In this document: positions 3,935 through 14,270 of the stretch, piece after piece
How positions within the stretch are numbered: the stretch's first letter is position 1
How the letters are laid out: each line of letters starts with the position of its first letter
NCBI RefSeq assembly: GCF_035285525.1
Contig: NZ_JAYKGW010000236.1
Coordinates: 1-14,270 of the forward strand
Direction of reading: 5' to 3'
Length of the DNA stretch: 14,270 bases
DNA from: Okeania sp.
GTDB taxonomy: Bacteria > Cyanobacteriota > Cyanobacteriia > Cyanobacteriales > Microcoleaceae
Translations under genes and position numbers: made by a program
Notes under the pieces: generated by a model
Told to the model about the DNA's origin: nothing
The model's database searches: none
The model's input: only the letters and a program-made list of their open reading frames with translations

Positions 3935-4091
3935 AGAGCTATTTGCCTATATATAATTTAATGTTAGTTTGTCTGTTTGGAAATTTTATATTTTTATTTG
4001 GCGATTTTCTGCGTGGTATTTATTTCCCCATAGATTAATTATCGCCTTTCGTCAGTTTAACATAGAGTTACTTGAAAATCTACATTATTGA

Positions 4092-4818
4092 TAATTAGGG
4101 TTTGCGCTTCTTCAGTCTTTTTCTAGGAGTAGGGGAGCGCTTTGGTAGGGGAGTAGAGGAGCAAGAAAGTAATTTTTTTTGCCCAACGATCTGCTTAAAA
4201 TTGTAACTTTTTGATTTTTCAGCGATTTATCGGGAACCGTACCGTGCATTAAGCAGCTCAAAACCAGGTACTTTTTACCTGTCTAAAAATGCTAAAAACT
4301 TTATCTGTAAAGGCTTTTAGATTTAATCAGCAAATCCTAATTAGGATTTGCTGAAAAAGTAGAGGTAGAAGCCAGAAGCCAGAATCCAGAAGGAATACTC
4401 ATTATAGAAGAAGTAATCAGAAGAATCGTTCCTTAATTTTCTACCCTTATGTTGCCAAAAATCCTAGATTTTTGAAGCATTACTACCTAAAAGCTGGTAC
4501 TTTATTAGTATCTGAAAATTGTCAAACCTTAAGCTCGTCAAGATTTTGATATTTAATCAACAAGCCCTAATTAGGTTTTGCTGAAAAAAGCAGAGGGTGG
4601 GAAGTGTCGGAAGTGTCGGAAGTGTCGGAAGATAGAGAAAGTAGGAGGAATAATTTTTTCTTGATTTTTCTACCCTTGGCCTCCCTAAAATCCTAAAATT
4701 CATGATTTTTCCGGAACCGTCCTTGAGATATCTAAAAGCGACTAATTTTTCCATACCTAAAAATGCTAAAAGCTTTATCTATAAAATGCTTTTAGATTTA
4801 ATCAGCAAGTCCTAATTA
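4092..4818. repeat. Family-A modular repeat, three tandem units (246, 230, 245 bp), each with a different short-tandem-repeat core
   Basis: Unit boundaries are at TAATTA 4092, 4338, 4568 and 4813. The junctions are palindromes (cagcaaatcc-taatta-ggatttgctg). Cores are GTAGGGGAG-like (4125-4165), heptamer agaagcc x~4 (4367-4393) and 9-mer gaagtgtcg x3 (4601-4627). The shared scaffold is aatttttt, gatttttc, (c)gggaaccgt, cctaaaaatgctaaaa.ctttatct.taaa.gcttttagatttaatcagcaa. Confidence 0.85.
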
Positions 4819-4946
4819 CACATCTGCGGAAAAGAAATAGGCAATAGGGGGAAGTAATTCATAATTTCTGGATCAGAATTGATTTTATGTTTTTCTTTTT
4901 GGAGATGTCTATTGAATAATGAATATTATAGATAATGAATTCCATA

Positions 4947-6983: not shown

Positions 6984-7206
6984 AGTTTTTCGGAGTTATT
7001 ATATAATTTAGTCAAAAATTTCTATTCTTTTATCATAATGAATCTTTCAATCTTCCGTGTTTTACTAAGTCTTGAAAAGCAGAAAAATATCTAGATTTTT
7101 TATTCCTTTATTAGCTGAATAACTACGTTTTTTAGATAAAAAAATATATAGCAATTGTATTTTATTTGTGTATAAAAGTTTTACTAATTTTAGGTAAAAG
7201 GGAACA

Positions 7207-7326
7207 GGTAATTTCAGTTCTTAATAGACAGTGAACCGCTGACTAAAATCGGAGGCTTGAAATACTGATTTGAAATTTTTCATACCCTGAAAAGGGGAGG
7301 CTTTATACCTCCTTTTTTGGTAAAAG
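7207..7326. repeat. Family-B MITE-like element, copy B3 (inverted, 120 bp, no nested insert)
   Basis: The reverse complement reads cttttacc aaaaaaggaggtataaagcctccccttttcagggtatgaaaaa tttcaaatcagtatttcaagcctccga...ggttcact...gaaattacc. ggtaaaag occurs at both edges (7196-7203 and 7319-7326). Confidence 0.7.
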
Positions 7327-7713
7327 TTTGAGTTTTTTCATCTACTTTTTGATTTGTCGTCACCTATTTAGGATTGCTTGAAGTAGTGGTATGAAATCAA
7401 TTAGGAATTTTTTTTCATAAATGATTATAACCATAAAAAATAATTTATGAGAAAAAACTCTAGGCATTTGGTCTGCAAATATCTTGGAGCTGGGGTTTGG
7501 AGACCAAACCCAGCATTTATAAATCTTACAACCTATTTAGGATTGCTATACTTAACTAAGTTGTATCCAGAAAAAAATCTTCAGTTAAATTTCTACAATC
7601 ATTTAGATTGAATTTTTAACATTTGTGTTTATATTGTGGCTGATTTTATTTAGGTCTGAATACAACTTAAACTTAAAAGATCGGATAATCTAGTCAGAAT
7701 TAACTAACCAATA

Positions 7714-8433
7714 TTAATTTTCTGGTTCAGTTTGATTTTCTGTTTCATCATCTGTAGATTCTGGTACTGTTGCTACTTTTACCATAGCGTGTCGAAGTAT
7801 GCGATCGCCTATAATATAACCTCGGACTAATTCTTCTATTACTGTTCCTTCTGGATACTGTGTAGTTTCTTCTCGCATTACTGCTTCATGTAGATTGGGG
7901 TCAAATTCTTGACCTTCTGGACGCATCGCAGAAACTCCTAACTTTTTCAAAGAGTCTACCATTTGTTTATAGACACTTTGATAGCTTTTATGGATAGTCA
8001 TTTCTCCATCATTTGCTGGTTTTATCTGGGAACGAGCACGCTCAAAGTTGTCAATTACTGGTAGTAATTCAATAATTGTGGCACACTTTACCTGTAAGTC
8101 TAATTCTTCTTTTTCTTTTTGTGTTCGTTTCCGGAAGTTATCAAAGTCTGCTCCTAATCTTTTGTATTGACTTTCTTTTTCTTCTAGTTGAAGATTGGCA
8201 CTTTCTAACTGATTTTGTGATGCTTCATAAGCTTCTTTTAATAATACTATTTCTGGTGATGTTGTTGCAGAGTTTTGCTGCTCTGTTTCTACAGAGATAT
8301 TATCTTCAGAGACTTCTTGGTTATTCTCTACTGTTTGAGATGAATCTAAGTCTGGATTTTGCTCAAATATAACTTCAATATTTTCATTTATTTCTTGATT
8401 TTTTGTTTCTGTAGAAGGAATCTCTCCTGTCAT
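7714..8433 (-). CDS. grpE: Nucleotide exchange factor GrpE
   Basis: 239 aa. It has an acidic low-complexity N-terminus, then a coiled-coil region (DFDNFRKRTQKEKEE) and the GrpE beta-domain (GTVIEELVRGYIIGDRILRHAMVKV). An AGGAG Shine-Dalgarno sequence lies ~9 nt upstream of the ATG. Confidence 0.93.
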   Translation of the reverse strand: MTGEIPSTETKNQEINENIEVIFEQNPDLDSSQTVENNQEVSEDNISVETEQQNSATTSPEIVLLKEAYEASQNQLESANLQLEEKESQYKRLGADFDNFRKRTQKEKEELDLQVKCATIIELLPVIDNFERARSQIKPANDGEMTIHKSYQSVYKQMVDSLKKLGVSAMRPEGQEFDPNLHEAVMREETTQYPEGTVIEELVRGYIIGDRILRHAMVKVATVPESTDDETENQTEPEN

Positions 8434-8523
8434 TTAATTTTCTCCTAATGCCTAATCTAAGATTATTACTATTTATTGTTTGGCTTTTCTCCCTGATTTA
8501 TCATAATCAAGAAGTAATACAGA

Positions 8524-8546
8524 AACACTGAAATTATAACAGTGTT
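8524..8546 (-). promoter_or_regulatory. Inverted repeat AACACTG-N9-CAGTGTT centred on a TATAAT hexamer, ~90 nt upstream of grpE
   Basis: The minus strand reads aacactgTTATAATttcagtgtt, a 7-bp perfect inverted repeat enclosing a consensus -10 box. No good -35 is found at 17 nt. Operator or promoter function is inferred only. Confidence 0.3.
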
Positions 8547-8595
8547 AATATCAAGTTTATATTAATTGTAGCTATTTTCATAGCCTGGAATTTAA

Positions 8596-8653
8596 GACAT
8601 AGGGCAGAAGACATAGGACAGAAGACATAGGACAGAAGACAGAAGGCGGAAGG
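8596..8653. repeat. STRR-like tandem array, 14-nt unit gacatagg(g/a)cagaa x3 plus a degenerate tail
   Basis: Units at 8596-8609, 8610-8623 and 8624-8637, then gacagaaggcggaagg. Confidence 0.9.
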
Positions 8654-8677
8654 AAAAGGTTTTTGTTGGTATCGGGA

Positions 8678-8705
8678 GTAGGGATGTTCCATGAAACGTC
8701 CCTAC
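8678..8705. repeat. Hairpin repeat GTAGGGATGTT-CCATG-AAACGTCCCTAC
   Basis: ~11-bp stem (one G-T pair) with a short loop. A degenerate second copy (agggatgttccatgtaaccgcctctctac) lies at ~14049-14077. Confidence 0.7.
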
Positions 8706-8760
8706 AGAATCAATATAAGGATGGAAGTTATGGAGGTGGTAGTTATTTATAATAGTAGTA

Positions 8761-8936
8761 TTTTTTCTACCAAAAAATCAGGTCTAAAGTCTCCTCTTTT
8801 AAGTCGAGAGATGGATGGGTTCCCTAAGCATATCTAATCGACCAAGAGAAACATTTAACTTCAGTATTTTAAGTCTCTGAGTTGAGTCGGAGGTTCACTC
8901 TTTACTGATAACTGATAACTGATAACCGAAATAACC
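8761..8936. repeat. Family-B MITE-like element, copy B2 (176 bp) with a 47-bp nested insert
   Basis: Same module order as B1. The insert 8804-8850 (tcgagagatggatgggttccctaagcatatctaatcgaccaagagaa) matches the right part of the B1 insert. It ends with ctgataa x3 (8905-8925) and gaaataacc. Confidence 0.8.
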
Positions 8937-9249
8937 TCCTGTTACACCAAAATATTAACTTGAGGAACCTGAGTTATCTAACAACCTATGCTTTTTCGGA
9001 ACCTAAAAATGCTAAATTTTTTATATGTTATGAAGTAAACATTCAGCTATTAGCATTCAGCATTAAGCTTTTGTAAAGAATTAAGCAATTCTAAGATTAG
9101 CTGATGAGCAATTTTATTTCCTAGCTGATAGCTGATAACTCACGTCTAAATGCTTAATTAGGCTAATTTTTTCTTGGCTGTAATAATAAGTTAATAACTC
9201 AAAGCTGATAGCTGATAAATGACGGCTAAATGCTTATATTATTAATGCT

Positions 9250-9267
9250 TTGCTGATTAATCAGCAA
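9250..9267 (-). terminator. 18-bp perfect palindrome ttgctgatt|aatcagcaa just 3' of the RTX1 stop
   Basis: Read directly from the sequence. It is part of a family-A repeat terminus (aatcagcaagtcctaatta). No U-run follows, so terminator function is speculative. Confidence 0.3.
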
Positions 9268-9270
9268 GTC

Positions 9271-10473
9271 CTAATTATCAATGAAAATATCAAATGCTTC
9301 TAGTTCAGGACTTCCTTTTAAACGTGCAAATAAACCACCACTACCAAATCCATTATTGCTGCCATTTTCGTTGTAATATAAATCGCCATTGCTTCGATCG
9401 TAAACAATAAAAGCATCACTATTTTCTGCTGCCTCATTATTGTTAACAATCTCAAATTCTTGTTCTTCTAGTAGACTTCCGATGAAAGTTTCTAGTCTGC
9501 TAAAAGTTGTTCGAGATAAAACAATAGTATCTTCACCTAACACAAAATCTACGATTGTATCTACACCTATATCCTGTTTCCGAAAATTACGACCTGTGTC
9601 ATAAACAAAAACATCTTTACCTTTACCACCAGTTAAAATATCATTTCCCGCTTCACCATAGAGGTCATCATTACCACTTCCTCCATTAAGTTTGTCTTTA
9701 CCATTTCCTCCAATTAAAATATCATCTCCTCCGCTACCTACAAGGTTATCATTTCCCTTTCCACCATTGAGGTCGTCATTACCACTTCCTCCATTAAGTT
9801 TGTCTTTGCCACTTCCTCCGATCAAAATATCATTTCCTCCTCTACCTATGAGGTTATCATTTCCTCCTTTGCCATCTAATTTTTCGTCTTTATTAGTACC
9901 TCTAAGAGTGTCTTTTTTTCCAGTTCCTATTCCTGTATCACTTTCTATTTTGGCGTATAAACCTGCTGTGGTTATACTATTTTCTAAGGCTGAAAGTTCT
10001 TCTGTAAATGTTAGACCATTATCTTGACTAAAGCCGAGTAATCTAATAGTATAATCGTTGTCTTTATACTGAAAACTACCGCTACTAATTTCATTCACAG
10101 GAATAACAAAATCAGCATCTTCTTCTGGGTCGTCACTACCAGGTGTTGATATTAGATTAAAGTCAAATTCAAAATTACCAGTAATTCTAGTTGGATCATA
10201 TAATTCTAGTTCTATATTTAGGGGTACTGATTCAACGTTTGTGCCTATATTAACTGAACCATTAAAATAGGTTAAGTTTCCTATTTTGAAGTTTTGATTC
10301 ACTTCAGTTGAGAAGGGATTAATGATAAAGTTCAGTTCGTTTCTGAATGTTTGTGGGTCTTCTCCCCATTTGAATGAGTGGGTATCAACACCTGCAAATA
10401 CGGGGAAATCATTTTCTATCCCTGGAGTAGGTTCTCCCCATTTACCATTAAAAAAGCCTGCAAATTCTACCAT
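9271..10473 (-). CDS. Leaderless RTX-type calcium-binding protein (copy 1, intact) with an unknown N-terminal domain
   Basis: 400 aa. Residues ~200-290 hold about ten GGxGxDxLx nonapeptides (GKGGNDNLIGRGGNDILIGGSGKDKLNGGSGNDDL...). The C-terminal module (DTIVDF..GEDTIVLS...FIVYDRSNGDLYYNENGSNNGFGSGGLFARL) is common in cyanobacterial hemolysin-type Ca-binding proteins. The N-terminal ~185 aa have no signal peptide and no motif I can name with certainty. Confidence 0.85.
   Translation of the reverse strand: MVEFAGFFNGKWGEPTPGIENDFPVFAGVDTHSFKWGEDPQTFRNELNFIINPFSTEVNQNFKIGNLTYFNGSVNIGTNVESVPLNIELELYDPTRITGNFEFDFNLISTPGSDDPEEDADFVIPVNEISSGSFQYKDNDYTIRLLGFSQDNGLTFTEELSALENSITTAGLYAKIESDTGIGTGKKDTLRGTNKDEKLDGKGGNDNLIGRGGNDILIGGSGKDKLNGGSGNDDLNGGKGNDNLVGSGGDDILIGGNGKDKLNGGSGNDDLYGEAGNDILTGGKGKDVFVYDTGRNFRKQDIGVDTIVDFVLGEDTIVLSRTTFSRLETFIGSLLEEQEFEIVNNNEAAENSDAFIVYDRSNGDLYYNENGSNNGFGSGGLFARLKGSPELEAFDIFIDN
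9661..9876. repeat. In-frame 108-bp tandem duplication inside RTX1 (9661-9768 and 9769-9876)
   Basis: The two 108-bp copies differ at roughly 15 positions by eye. Each encodes four nonapeptides (36 aa). The paralogue at 12675-13763 has only one copy. Confidence 0.9.
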
Positions 10474-10642: not shown

Positions 10643-10739
10643 ACTATATTTTCTGGTTAAAAACAGAATTTAATTTGTAGGAGTTGTGGGTGGATACCGA
10701 GATTTTGATTCACTTTTTGAAGATGTAGATAAGGGTTAA
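10643..10739 (+). pseudogene. ParE/RelE-family toxin 3' remnant with an in-frame TAA
   Basis: It translates LYFLVKNRI*FVGVVGGYRDFDSLFEDVDKG*. This aligns with the C-terminus of the parE at 12279-12584 (IFYFQGKNRIEVVRVVSGYRDLDKLFEDMDKS*). TAA at 10671-10673 sits where the other copy has GAA. No recognisable N-terminal half lies upstream. Confidence 0.55.
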
Positions 10740-10875
10740 TTTACTATTTAAACATTTTATGAAGCTCCCAAATAGGGGAGTTGTGTGATGAAAATTTCCT
10801 ACTGTTTCACAATAGCTAATTCATTTTGTGAAGTTCCCGACTACTCCCATTACGCTCTAAGATTACCGAAAGATT

Positions 10876-10908
10876 GTAGGTTGGGTTGAGGTACGAAACC
10901 CAACCTAC
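10876..10908. repeat. Perfect 12-bp-stem hairpin gtaggttgggtt-N9-aacccaacctac
   Basis: Read directly from the sequence. A related GGGTTT/AAACCC hairpin lies at ~7490-7516 (gctggggtttgg agac caaacccagc). Confidence 0.85.
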
Positions 10909-11033
10909 CTTATAGGAAATCTTCCACTATTTTAATAATGGATACTTACCTCTCCCTAAAATTTAGTCCAGTAGTGGACTGTTTCATCTAAAACTGTGCA
11001 TTAGCTTTGAACTTGAAAATTCTTAATGCATCA

Positions 11034-11070
11034 CTTTTGAATTTTAACTTTTGAATTCAATTTTAGAATT
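11034..11070. repeat. TTTTGAA-type degenerate heptamer array, inverted partner of 11687-11757
   Basis: cttttgaattttaacttttgaattcaattttagaatt. It overlaps the last 9 codons and the stop of the 212-aa ORF. Confidence 0.7.
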
Positions 11071-11682
11071 GCTATATTCTTGAAATGGCTGCAAAATAAT
11101 TCCTAAAATTTTATCAATTTCTTTAACATAATATTCCCCTACATCTATACGCACAATTTTTTCTTCAAGTGTTAAAAATTTCCAATTTGTTCCAGTTGTA
11201 ACTGCACCATAAATAACCTTAACTGAATTACCACAACGCTGATTAAATAATTGCCCTCCCACCATACTAGCAACACATTGTCCTAAACCACGAATAATAT
11301 TTTCATTTTTAGCTTCAACAATAGTAATAACTGGAGCAGTAATAAAATATTGTGCAGAGGAAAAACTGAGCAAAAAATCACAATATCCTTGTAATCCTAA
11401 TTCTGCTTCTACATTAAACTCTGTTCCCGAAAAAAGACTAATTTGATAATTTAATTGTCGTCTAACTTCAGCTAAAATTTGCGAAATTAATAGTTCTGAA
11501 CGAGCTTTTCCTGTATTAATAGCAGTTGCTAAGGGAATATATTCTCCTAAAATAGTTGTGAGAATTTCCGAAGGTTTAATTGGTTGAATTTTAGGAAATA
11601 AATCTTGATTTTCTTCTAAAGTTAATTCAAAATTTATTTTGGCATTTTCTAGTGTAAATTTACTGTAAGAAAGATTGCTCAT
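11044..11682 (-). CDS. Orphan PD-(D/E)xK nuclease-fold protein (HsdR N-terminal-domain-like)
   Basis: 212 aa. The motif order is E63 (KARSELLI), D102 (GYCDFLL), E123-A-K125 (ITIVEAKNE), Q135 and TTGTNWKF, matching the restriction-endonuclease-like core. No methylase, specificity, helicase or ATPase partner is present in the window. Confidence 0.6.
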   Translation of the reverse strand: MSNLSYSKFTLENAKINFELTLEENQDLFPKIQPIKPSEILTTILGEYIPLATAINTGKARSELLISQILAEVRRQLNYQISLFSGTEFNVEAELGLQGYCDFLLSFSSAQYFITAPVITIVEAKNENIIRGLGQCVASMVGGQLFNQRCGNSVKVIYGAVTTGTNWKFLTLEEKIVRIDVGEYYVKEIDKILGIILQPFQEYSNSKIEFKS

Positions 11683-11686
11683 GGAA

Positions 11687-11757
11687 ATTCAAAATTCAAA
11701 ATTCAAAATTCAAAAGTAAGAATTGAAAAGTCAAAATTGCAAAGGGAATTCAAAATT
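11687..11757. repeat. STRR-like heptamer array attcaaa x4 plus a degenerate tail, starting 5 nt upstream of the 212-aa ORF start
   Basis: There are four perfect copies at 11687-11714. These are followed by agtaagaattgaaaagtcaaaattgcaaagggaattcaaaatt. Confidence 0.85.
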
Positions 11758-11996
11758 ATAACAGTTTTTATTATAGGGGAAATTCATTAGAATATTTAGC
11801 TAATGAGTAAAACATGGAAATTCAAAAGTATAGGGATTTTGATGATAAGGAAAATTCATTTGAGTAGCCATCTTTAGAGGCTAAATGCCATTTGCTCCTG
11901 GGATAATATGACCGTTACGTGTGTAAGTCCTGTAAATATTATTATTGTATAGTTTATAATTACTATCAAAAGAATGTTTACCTAATCAGTAAAACT

Positions 11997-12278
11997 ATGG
12001 ATATTGTCTTAACTCCAGATATAGAAAAACTTGTTGAAGAGCAAATTGAAACTGGAAACTATCAGGATGCTCTGGCAGTTATTCGGGAAGGGTGACAATT
12101 ATTGGTAGAAAGAGAGAGGATTTATAAAGGAAAATTCTACCAACTTAAAAAAGAAGTGGAAATTGGCATTGAAGAATTAAAGCGAGGTGAAATATTGGAT
12201 GGTGAAGCAGTATTTTATGAATTAGAAAAAGATATTAGGCAAATAGAAATTGCAATGGAACACAGAGGTAAAAATTAA
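11997..12278 (+). pseudogene. parD: ParD/CopG-type antitoxin interrupted by one in-frame TGA (codon 33)
   Basis: Hand translation gives MDIVLTPDIEKLVEEQIETGNYQDALAVIREG*QLLVERERIYKGKFYQLKKEVEIGIEELKRGEILDGEAVFYELEKDIRQIEIAMEHRGKN*. This fits the ParD pattern (..SLTPELE.FV...V..G.Y.SASEVIREALRLL.E). TGA lies at 12093-12095. The stop abuts the next ATG (TAAATG). Confidence 0.7.
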
Positions 12279-12584
12279 ATGGGTAGATATATTATTGCTT
12301 CTCCAGCACGATTAGATTTAAAAGAAATTAATACTTATCTATCTCAAAAAAATCCACAAGCAGCAAAAAAACTACAAGCAAAAATTAGAGAAAAGTGCAG
12401 ATAATTAGCAGATTTTTCAGGAATGGGGTGTAACCGTGAAAAGTTAGCTTTAGGATTAAGAAGTTTTCCTGTGGATGATTATCTTATCTTTTATTTTCAG
12501 GGTAAAAACAGAATTGAAGTTGTACGAGTCGTGAGTGGATATCGAGATTTAGATAAACTTTTTGAGGATATGGATAAGAGTTAA
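12279..12584 (+). pseudogene. parE: ParE/RelE-family toxin interrupted by one in-frame TAA (codon 42)
   Basis: Hand translation gives MGRYIIASPARLDLKEINTYLSQKNPQAAKKLQAKIREKCR*LADFSGMGCNREKLALGLRSFPVDDYLIFYFQGKNRIEVVRVVSGYRDLDKLFEDMDKS*. It shows the typical ParE features (A..DL..I..Y, L..FP.MG, LRSFPV..YLIFY, IEVVRV..G.RDL). TAA lies at 12402-12404. Confidence 0.75.
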
Positions 12585-12602
12585 TTTAGTATTAATTGAA
12601 TA

Positions 12603-12636
12603 GGGCAACCATTAGTAGATTGCCCCTAATTTTTTA
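12603..12636 (+). terminator. Putative intrinsic terminator after parE
   Basis: gggcaa (12603-12608) pairs with ttgccc (12620-12625) around an 11-nt loop. It is followed by ctaa and tttttt (12630-12635). Confidence 0.45.
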
Positions 12637-12674
12637 TTCTTTAATTATATAAGCGTTTCCTACGGAATGCTTAC

Positions 12675-13763
12675 TTAATTATCAATGAAGAAATCACTCG
12701 CTTGTAGTTCAGGAGTTGTTTCTAAACGGGCGAATAAACCACCACTACCAAATCCATTATTACTGCCATTTTGGTTATAGTATAAATTGCCATTATTTTG
12801 ATTGTAAACAATAAAAGCATTACTATTACTTGCGGCACTGTTAGTATTAACAACTTCAAATTATTGCAGTATATTTCCTGGTACAGTTTCTATTTCATTG
12901 AAGGTAGTTCGAGATAGAATAATAGTATCTTCATCTAACACAAAATCGACTATTTTATCTACTCCTACATCCCGTTTCCGAAAATTACGACCTGTGTCAT
13001 AAATAAAGTTATCTGCTCCACCACCACCAATTAAGGTATCATTTCCGGGTCCACCATAGAGGTCGTCATTTCCACCTCCTCCATTAAGTCTATCTTTACC
13101 ATTTCCTCCAATCAAAATATCATCTCCTCCCTTACCTATGAGGCTATCATTTCCTCCTTTACCATCTAATCTTTCGTCTTTATTAGTACCTCTAAGGGTT
13201 TCTTTTTTTCCAGTTCCTATTCCTTTATCAATTTCTATTCTGGCATACAAACCTGCTGTTGTTCTGGCGTTTTCAAATACTTTAAATTCTTCTGTAAATG
13301 TTTTACCTTTGTCTTGACTAAATCCTAGTAATCTAATTGTGTAATCTTTTCCTTTAGAGCTGAAACTACCATTACTAACCTTACTTAAAGGAAAGACAAA
13401 ATCAGCAGCTTCTTCTGGATCGTCACTAGAAGGTGTTGTAACAATATCAAAGTCAAAGTCAAAAGATTCAGTACGTCTAGTAGGATTATATAGTTCTAGT
13501 TCTATTTCCAGAGGTACTGATTCAACATTTGAACCAGTTGAACCATTAAAATAGATTAAATCTCCTACTTTAAACTTTTTATTTAGTTGAGTAGAGAAAG
13601 GATTAATTACAAAGCTCAGTTCATTTGGGTATGTTCTAGAGTTTCCTATTTCCCCCCACTTGAATGAGTGGGTTTCAACACCTTCAAATACAGCAGAAGA
13701 GATACTTTCCCCTCGAATAGGTTCTCCCCATTTACCATTAAAAAAACCTTTAAATTCTACCAT
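12675..13763 (-). pseudogene. RTX-type calcium-binding protein paralogue (copy 2) with a single in-frame TAA at codon 301
   Basis: The track ORF 12861-13763 (300 aa) ends at TAA 12861-12863. The same frame then continues open for 61 more codons (FEVVNTNSAASNSNAFIVYNQNNGNLYYNQNGSNNGFGSGGLFARLETTPELQASDFFIDN*) to TAA 12675-12677, colinear with the C-terminus of copy 1. Copy 1 has CAA GAA TTT GAG where copy 2 has CAA TAA TTT GAA. Confidence 0.85.
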
Positions 13764-14270
13764 GATAGTTATTTGATCAAATCTAGGAAGTATTGATTGA
13801 GATTTTAATTCATCAAAACATTATTCATAATATCTGCACATTTTTTTTATATTGGCTTTTTCTATCCCTCCTACCCTCCTTTCAAACCTATGGTTTATAA
13901 ACATCTTTCTCTTTTCATAAAACTTCTAGTGATAACTGATAACTGAAATGGTGAAGGGAGATTTCGGGGAATTTTCAATCTACTTTGAGCGATCGCTTAA
14001 AACAATAACTAAATATTAGGCAAAAGTGCTGGAAAGCTTATAAATATAGGGATGTTCCATGTAACCGCCTCTCTACTGATAACTATATAAGCGATCGCTT
14101 ATTAGCACAAGTTGAATTAAAAATCATGCGTATAGACGAACAACCCCAGTCGAATTTCATTATATCAAATTTTCGGTCCCAACGCAAGGGCATCTTTTTT
14201 AGGGGCGCGATTTTTTCTTGGGGGTAGCTCTCACAAAATGAACATCTTGGTACTTTGCTACTGATATGAG

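Follow-up and report, generated by a model that had tools for sequence, protein, structure and literature searches.

Introduction

Chromosomal type II toxin–antitoxin modules of the ParD/ParE kind (RelE/ParE superfamily) are organized with the antitoxin gene ahead of the toxin gene and the stop codon of parD abutting the ATG of parE, and filamentous cyanobacteria are endowed with proteins in which a choice-of-anchor K domain is joined to calcium-binding RTX (HemolysinCabind) repeats. The contig analyzed in the present study, which is 14,270 bp long and is referred to in its entirety as the window, harbors both kinds of gene in a damaged state. It belongs to a metagenome-assembled genome (MAG) of Okeania sp. 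(taxid 3100323, proteins MEB33434xx), and within it the antitoxin gene parD, the toxin gene parE and the second of two RTX genes (RTX copy 2) are each interrupted by one in-frame stop codon, a fourth such stop being located in a scrap of another parE copy.

Gene inactivation by a single point mutation is not without precedent. Nonsense mutations account for 131 of the 346 single-lesion pseudogenes (38%) of Salmonella (Kuo and Ochman 2010, PMC2916853), and codons lying one step from a stop, here termed stop-prone, make up 22% on average in bacteria (Belinky et al. 2021, PMC7918605). A first-pass annotation of the window, made from its letters and open reading frames, had regarded the four stops as a conspicuous run of nonsense-only lesions and had proposed very recent inactivation under a biased mutation spectrum with relaxed selection, selective silencing or sequence error as explanations. 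From the analysis presented here, the stops quite probably reflect ordinary gene decay in an AT-rich Okeania genome, in which a dispensable chromosomal parDE module and a redundant RTX paralogue turned into pseudogenes at different times. A single mutational event or a recoding story uniting the stops is not supported.

Results

All four stop codons are present at the positions where the first-pass annotation had placed them (Table 1). Its accompanying description, a single stop in a frame left uninterrupted on either side, is borne out for parD, parE and RTX copy 2, which are full length, can be aligned codon for codon with intact orthologues and contain no frameshift; for the parE scrap, a truncation of 102 nucleotides (nt), it does not hold. 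Beyond the stop, the frame of each of the three genes stays open for 59–61 codons, a length seldom reached in composition-matched shuffles (P = 0.001 for parD, 0.004 for parE and 0.005 for RTX copy 2). Since the three downstream frames are open beyond the expectation from composition, they can be regarded as real interrupted genes and not as chance open reading frames.

Comparison of the interrupted codons was done with related loci. The genome scan with ParE returned three Okeania loci, namely those of Okeania sp. KiyG1 (L003), Okeania sp. SIO2B3 (L004) and Okeania sp. SIO3I5 (L005), the source contig itself not being among them, and a metagenome contig (L008) was reached via protein search. 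The sole return of the ParE metagenome scan was a 49%-identical relative (L006), so that the scan yielded no population data on this species. Sense codons occupy all three sites in intact orthologues. The ancestral codon of the parD stop is TTA (Leu) in KiyG1, SIO3I5 and L008, with Leu also found at the protein level in four further ParD orthologues; that of the parE stop is CAA (Gln) in KiyG1 and L008 and CAG in SIO2B3; and that of the RTX copy 2 stop is GAA in both RTX copy 1 and the KiyG1 orthologue, the ten homologues that cover the site having Glu there, or Asp in one of them. The corresponding changes are T>G, C>T and G>T, respectively.

The PF05016 profile scores 62.9 bits (cut-off 23) on the window ParE and extends over residues 4–90 of 101, thereby spanning the stop, and RTX copy 2 scores 118.5 bits with NF038131 (cut-off 30) and 45.5 bits with PF00353 (cut-off 23). 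ParD falls just below the curated cut-offs (PF03693, 18.5 bits against 21; TIGR02606, 44.7 bits against 46.2); its orthologues, 78–87% identical, bear precomputed PF03693 hits, and one of them is named ParD family antitoxin by NCBI. The terminator of parD (12276–12278) directly abuts the parE ATG at 12279, an arrangement shared by KiyG1 and SIO3I5 and, apart from a 1-nt spacer, by L008.

Table 1 Interrupted genes and neighboring features of the window
Feature	Position	Strand	Description
parD	11997..12278	+	Antitoxin pseudogene, 93 codons; in-frame TGA at codon 33 (12093–12095), context TGA-C
parE	12279..12584	+	Toxin pseudogene, 101 codons; in-frame TAA at codon 42 (12402–12404); many private missense changes
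RTX copy 2	12675..13763	-	362 codons; choice-of-anchor K domain, RTX nonapeptide repeats, conserved C-terminal region; TAA at codon 301 (12861–12863, TTA on the + strand)
parE scrap	10646..10747	+	3' end of second parE copy: last 31 codons, stop, 9 nt; in-frame TAA 10671–10673
RTX copy 1	9271..10473	-	Intact 400-residue paralogue; NF038131 125.5 bits, PF00353 91 bits
ORF212	11044..11682	-	Intact, 212 residues; upstream neighbor of parDE

The premature stops of the three full-length genes were reproduced in a second assembly. The Logan assembly of run SRR19514071 is identical to the window over 7522–9212, 11693–12762 and 12733–13923; the contigs behind the latter two matches span the parD TGA and the parE TAA (L007) and the RTX copy 2 TAA (L002), all three stops being reproduced base for base, and the first match has the grpE region the same in both assemblies. 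Sequencing, assembly or MAG-consensus error, which would make the stops artefacts, could appeal to the source being a MAG with short Logan contigs (1–1.7 kb), hinting at modest coverage, and spurious internal stops are a known product of low coverage and of certain assemblers (PMC11017572). However, a second assembler arrived at the identical sequence across the three stops as well as over grpE, and the parE TAA recurs in the assembly of SIO3I5, which is unrelated and comes from a different sample. Moreover, a stop results from only 4–6% of random base errors, so that dozens of errors within 1.7 kb would be needed to produce three of them, and three stops in the 556 codons of parD, parE and RTX copy 2 stand against none in the 2,388 codons of seven intact genes (Fisher P = 0.0067). 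The stops are thus confined to accessory genes, which is the distribution predicted by selection and not by random error. That error made the stops, one of the first-pass suggestions, is very unlikely; the suggestion of relaxed selection finds agreement in that the pseudogenes are real and lie in accessory genes.

The parE gene is the most eroded of the three. Its window-private changes comprise one synonymous and 12 missense, compared to 6 and 4 in the intact KiyG1 gene (Fisher P = 0.019). With conservation judged over 120 homologues, every one carrying PF05016, the window ParE was found to have the rare residues P47S, R51C, E55K, V75G and A93K at positions where 96–114 of the 120 agree; it is both interrupted at codon 42 and altered at conserved residues. 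Twelve missense changes to one synonymous, together with radical changes at conserved residues, show that parE has long been free of constraint. It was consequently not damaged by the stop only, as had been claimed.

The parE stop is not exclusive to the window, given that the parE of SIO3I5 carries a TAA at the same codon. Both sequences read AGA-TAA where the others read AGG-CAA, and six sites group the window and SIO3I5 against L008 and KiyG1, of which five lie within parE nt 45–141 (window 12323–12419), around the shared TAA. Over the parDE alignment of these four sequences, the three conflicting quartet site patterns are supported by 10, 8 and 6 sites, and the lineages are roughly equidistant. 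Such a mosaic phylogeny hints that parDE alleles of Okeania have recombined or undergone gene conversion, and the clustering of variants points to a common haplotype, acquired by descent or by recombination, as the probable source of the shared TAA. Plain common ancestry of the shared stop, our first reading, was weakened by the near equidistance of the lineages and by SIO3I5 having been hit at several C>T targets; the clustering of variants favors a shared haplotype. The claim of very recent inactivation is not sustained for parE, whose TAA lies in a haplotype shared with SIO3I5 and which bears the 12 private missense changes mentioned above.

The decay of parD is intermediate and less than that of parE. 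Its window-private changes amount to 4 synonymous and 6 missense in addition to the TGA, the pairwise omega involving the window copy is 0.22–0.27 compared with 0.16 among intact copies, and seven private replacements occur at positions invariant in five orthologues; the ParD protein search gave 5 hits, a number that does not allow conservation to be assessed across the family as with ParE. At codon 48 of parD (12138–12140) the window has Tyr (TAC) where every orthologue has Gln (CAA or CAG), a double substitution whose route necessarily passes via His or via a stop. The Logan gene table lists a 93-residue parD product, P0152 (L007 305–586), with Trp at the site of the TGA. This entry was considered as a sign of a sense codon and ruled out, as its DNA has TGA and the genetic code used for the call, which was made on a short AT-rich contig, reads TGA as Trp; P0152 is a database artefact that masks the parD pseudogene.

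To either side of the private stop of RTX copy 2, synonymous and non-synonymous differences occur in a similar ratio, which fits a recent lesion. Relaxed constraint in the window lineage is accordingly seen in parE only, parD being intermediate and RTX copy 2 unchanged across its stop. With its proper terminator at 12675–12677, RTX copy 2 is deprived by the premature TAA of its last 61 residues, and the C-terminal region that is nearly invariant in the 10 homologues retaining it is left untranslated. The C-terminus of RTX proteins usually bears the type I secretion signal, and the truncated product would probably no longer be secreted. RTX copy 1 makes RTX copy 2 redundant. The two paralogues are 64% identical and all indels between them are whole-codon; when the KiyG1 orthologue is added to the comparison, the three sequences are set apart by several indels of whole codons, one of which is a 36-codon repeat block.

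That block, an extra in-frame segment of RTX copy 1 (9639–9864), consists of 36 codons of nonapeptides (108 nt; period-108 tandem repeat, 2.1 copies), is absent in RTX copy 2 and nine other aligned homologues, and was read as a recent repeat expansion. Two close homologues of RTX copy 2, P0138 and P0139 (one of them from Okeania sp. SIO3B3), begin at an internal Met that corresponds to residue 49 and miss the initial third of their choice-of-anchor K domain, possibly by N-terminal truncation or a miscalled start.

Decay of the same module is also discernible in the sister genomes. Both parD and parE are intact in KiyG1, where an intact 363-residue orthologue of RTX copy 2 lies 1.5 kb upstream, and in L008, whose ParE is 89% identical to that of the window. 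In SIO2B3, parD is gone, parE lacks its first 14 codons and RTX is reduced to a scrap of its C-terminus. In SIO3I5, parE (L005 10001–10440) is broken by in-frame stops at five of its 101 codons (E16, Q42, Q74, R83 and R88), most of them due to C>T. It has also gained an insertion of 124 nt behind codon 50 and lost its terminator (TAA>TCA), and the parD beside it is intact.

The parE scrap of the window has undergone a comparable fate. By blastn it matches window parE 12492–12593 with 84% identity over 102 nt and no gaps, and nothing further upstream aligns; about 70 codons, the 5' two thirds of parE, and the whole of parD are missing, so that deletion or rearrangement has to be regarded as its main lesion. 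The codon at its TAA is GAA in every other parE copy, corresponding to a G>T change, and the 21-codon open stretch after the stop is not significant (shuffle P = 0.15). The assertion that no indels had taken part, stops being the only lesions, thus fails for the remnant through its truncation, and for the module at large through the 5' deletion in SIO2B3 and the 124-nt insertion in SIO3I5.

With the scrap included, the changes inferred at the four stops are T>G (parD), C>T (parE), G>T (RTX copy 2) and G>T (scrap). The earlier statement that GAA had turned into TAA in the two cases for which a paralogue is at hand is correct. The oxidative theme that was built on it is not upheld, with three change types among four stops and with G>T already the largest class of route to a stop by codon composition (77 of 253 routes, GAA>TAA being the commonest single route with 46 of 253); at a share of 77/253, two or more of four being G>T has a probability of about 0.35. 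The number of stops is equally unexceptional. A stop results from 6% of the possible substitutions in either gene of the parDE pair and from 4% in RTX, and when about 21 substitutions, the set proper to each lineage, were placed randomly, 1.45–1.53 stops per gene were obtained, where one each is seen. Stop-prone codons account for 49% of parD and 46% of parE. With almost every second codon convertible to a stop by one substitution, the first lesion to strike such a gene should be nonsense about as often as a frameshift. Three nonsense lesions out of three have P = 0.055 at the Salmonella share of 38% and P = 0.13–0.22 at the shares of 50–60% plausible for this codon usage, for a pattern that was picked post hoc from the sequence; the run therefore does not stand out beyond chance, contrary to the first impression.

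A mutational burst or a biased spectrum, be it oxidative G>T damage, a mutator or a strong GC>AT pressure with a very low indel rate, could be conceived to have produced the stops nearly simultaneously. In its favor, G>T accounts for half of the four stops and GC>AT for three, window-private parE changes run 8 GC>AT to 4 AT>GC in a gene of 34% GC, not one small indel is found over 556 codons, and the parE of SIO3I5 is stop-rich too. Nevertheless, the three change types include a T>G that runs counter to the bias, the lead of G>T follows from codon composition alone, and the private changes of parD are unbiased (5 GC>AT and 6 AT>GC). The ages differ as well, the parE stop being old and shared and the RTX copy 2 stop private with unchanged constraint across it, and indels and deletions do strike the module in sister genomes. 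A burst is hence very unlikely to account for the cluster, for which asynchronous decay of dispensable genes is the preferred reading.

The first-pass annotation had deemed recoding the least likely of its explanations, and this judgement stands. All three stop codons end intact genes of the contig, TGA in rsgA and the tusA-like gene, TAA in dnaJ, grpE and ORF212, and TAG in dnaK and RTX copy 1, and the orthologous residues at the interrupted sites are Leu, Gln and Glu, not selenocysteine, Trp or Gly. No recoding element or suppressor tRNA was detected by the Rfam, tRNA and tandem-repeat scans of the window, in which the sole tRNA is Cys-GCA. Judged within the contig, stop-codon reassignment or programmed recoding is unlikely.

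A related view would hold the stops to be tolerated or even regulatory, as in "pseudo-pseudogenes", low readthrough leaving the genes down-tuned and not dead. The parD stop has the context TGA-C, a weak termination context in E. coli, and all three frames are open 3' of the stops. In-frame stops shared between species, with a ratio of non-synonymous to synonymous rates (dN/dS) below 1, are also reported to be common (PMC7918605). On the other hand, the premature stops of parE and RTX copy 2 are each followed by T. TAA-T is a strong termination context in E. coli, and the window parE has a non-synonymous to synonymous ratio (pN/pS) of at least 1 and radical changes at conserved residues. The SIO3I5 orthologue that shares the TAA is plainly dead, having five stops, an insertion and no terminator, and the absence of a suppressor tRNA from the contig and the regular use of all three stop codons as terminators speak against readthrough likewise. 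With the toxin dead, an antitoxin made by readthrough would be without a task. Readthrough is accordingly highly improbable as an explanation of the three stops.

The shared haplotype also invites an adaptive account, according to which the parE TAA null allele was favored for removing a costly toxin and spread by recombination, the parD and RTX copy 2 stops being selected as well. It would explain why the window and SIO3I5 have the same TAA within a block of about 100 nt of shared variants when the rest of the module has conflicting phylogeny. Of the five lineages seen, three have a disabled parE, each with its own set of lesions, and the stops in SIO3I5 exceed expectation. Neutral loss of a non-essential chromosomal toxin–antitoxin module fits the same data, however; stops that come after the first one are not selectable, intact parDE is retained in KiyG1 and L008, nothing hints at a benefit from truncating RTX copy 2 or parD, and the numbers are small and the tests picked post hoc. 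For parE, silencing of the toxin by selection is possible, and adaptive silencing as an account of the locus as a whole is improbable.

The contig has a GC content of about 35% and its genes follow the order tRNA-Cys, rsgA, tusA-like, dnaJ, dnaK, grpE, RTX copy 1 (-), parE scrap (+), ORF212 (-), parD-parE (+), RTX copy 2 (-) and a repeat at the contig end. Being from Okeania (Oscillatoriales, family Microcoleaceae), which we read as free-living, it does not sustain the comparison with host-associated Nostocales that had been drawn. ORF212, for which no family match was found in Pfam or NCBIfam, has a 90% identical homologue in SIO3I5 (L005 8923–9579), placed and oriented relative to parD as in the window, and by this comparison it qualifies as a conserved neighbor of the parDE module. 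Exact-product database look-ups for ORF212, RTX copy 1 and the C-terminal fragment of ParE found no record.

Several repeats accompany these genes. A family of repeats of about 150 nt, which may be MITEs or of another kind, with no Rfam match and with copies 70–92% identical, lies in tandem or dispersed beside parDE and RTX at every Okeania locus examined (window 14110–14270, L003 8585–9236, L004 9762–9991, L005 10454–12029), one copy being cut off by the end of the window contig. A second short repeat (10753–10839), 71–73% identical to three overlapping copies at L005 12206–12451, and beside it a hairpin with the perfect 9-bp stem GGTTGGGTT...AACCCAACC (approximately 10878–10906) occupy the stretch that separates the parE scrap from ORF212. 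A 7-mer tandem repeat of 8.3 copies (11685–11743) precedes parD. The spacers of the chaperone genes are unusually long at 0.7–1.0 kb (3935–4946, 6984–7713 and 8434–9270) and carry tandem repeats, a 9-mer in 3.6 copies at 4600–4631 and a 14-mer in 3.4 copies at 8594–8641; such long, repeat-bearing spacers are consistent with a genome of low coding density.

Discussion

Taken together, the observations can be arranged in a tentative sequence of events. The parE toxin would have been lost first through CAA>TAA, a null allele common to another Okeania lineage, and the dead gene would then have drifted and gathered radical missense changes. Without an active toxin, parD would have become dispensable and may later have taken up TTA>TGA along with its extra replacements, and RTX copy 2, redundant with RTX copy 1, would have received the private GAA>TAA that removes its conserved C-terminal 61 residues. 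The parE scrap would have originated separately by deletion or rearrangement, its stop being incidental. We infer the toxin-first order because loss of the antitoxin first would free the toxin, which leaves it the only viable order, and SIO3I5, with a wrecked parE and an intact parD, is consistent with it. Loss of function would probably have followed in each of the three genes.

Certain points weigh against ordinary decay as the whole explanation. The absence of any small indel from three full-length frames is somewhat one-sided (P ~0.05–0.2, depending on the share assumed), and the parE of SIO3I5 has five stops where 1.6 are expected from 18 random substitutions (P = 0.008, post hoc). The TAA shared with SIO3I5 could conceivably be a parallel C>T hit, since the gene offers few sites where C>T makes a stop and several of these have been hit in that lineage. 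The second assembly was probably made from the reads that underlie the MAG, and its agreement therefore confirms the assembly step and not the reads themselves. It is possible that genes in Okeania decay with a mild excess of nonsense or a shortage of indels. Extended further, the three nonsense-only genes of the contig and the stop excess of SIO3I5 parE form the basis for the idea that Okeania, perhaps along with the low-coding-density Trichodesmium clade, decays mainly by substitution, small indels being unusually scarce and the bias towards deletion weak, its dead genes persisting as long, frame-preserving and stop-studded relics. We consider this generalization improbable. Were it true genome-wide, it would constitute a lineage-specific mutational property and help to explain the large non-coding share.

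The practical consequences concern annotation. The parD, parE and RTX copy 2 genes ought to be flagged as pseudogenes and not as separate short "hypothetical" or truncated proteins (MEB3343436.1, MEB3343437.1), and the public gene call P0152, with TGA read as Trp, is not trustworthy. The locus serves as a small example of the expected order of toxin–antitoxin decay, toxin and then antitoxin, and of how AT-rich codon usage makes nonsense a leading path to gene death. Beyond annotation its significance is small; it would gain wider interest only if an indel-poor decay spectrum held genome-wide across Okeania and Trichodesmium.

Comparison with known systems

Among described systems, the nonsense pseudogenes of Salmonella (PMC2916853) resemble the three window genes in having one disabling point mutation per gene, frames that are otherwise intact and accessory or redundant genes as those affected. 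They differ in that nonsense makes up 38% of the Salmonella set and three of three here, which fits stop-prone shares of 46–49% in parD and parE against the 22% mean. The conserved in-frame stops and "pseudo-pseudogenes" reported by Belinky et al. (2021, PMC7918605) and by Salmonella proteogenomics (PMC9122581) are called to mind by the parE TAA, which occupies the same codon in the window and SIO3I5 in frames that are open; unlike those cases, purifying selection is not apparent in the window parE lineage, the second sequence with this stop is in heavy decay and the TAA-T context speaks against readthrough.

RTX copies 1 and 2 have the full architecture of the choice-of-anchor K and RTX proteins of filamentous cyanobacteria, for which close and full-length Okeania homologues of 363–365 residues exist, and depart from it by the cut 61 residues before the conserved C-terminus in copy 2 and by the additional 36-residue repeat block in copy 1. 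Finally, the window module is akin to chromosomal type II ParD/ParE in its gene order, its abutting parD stop and parE ATG, its score with the ParE_toxin hidden Markov model well above cut-off and its close intact orthologues in Okeania. It is unlike an intact module in that both genes are interrupted, ParE has radical replacements and the ParD models score just under their cut-offs. Its state agrees with the order of decay expected of ParD/ParE, the toxin being disabled and the antitoxin either intact, as in SIO3I5, or disabled later, as appears to be the case in the window.

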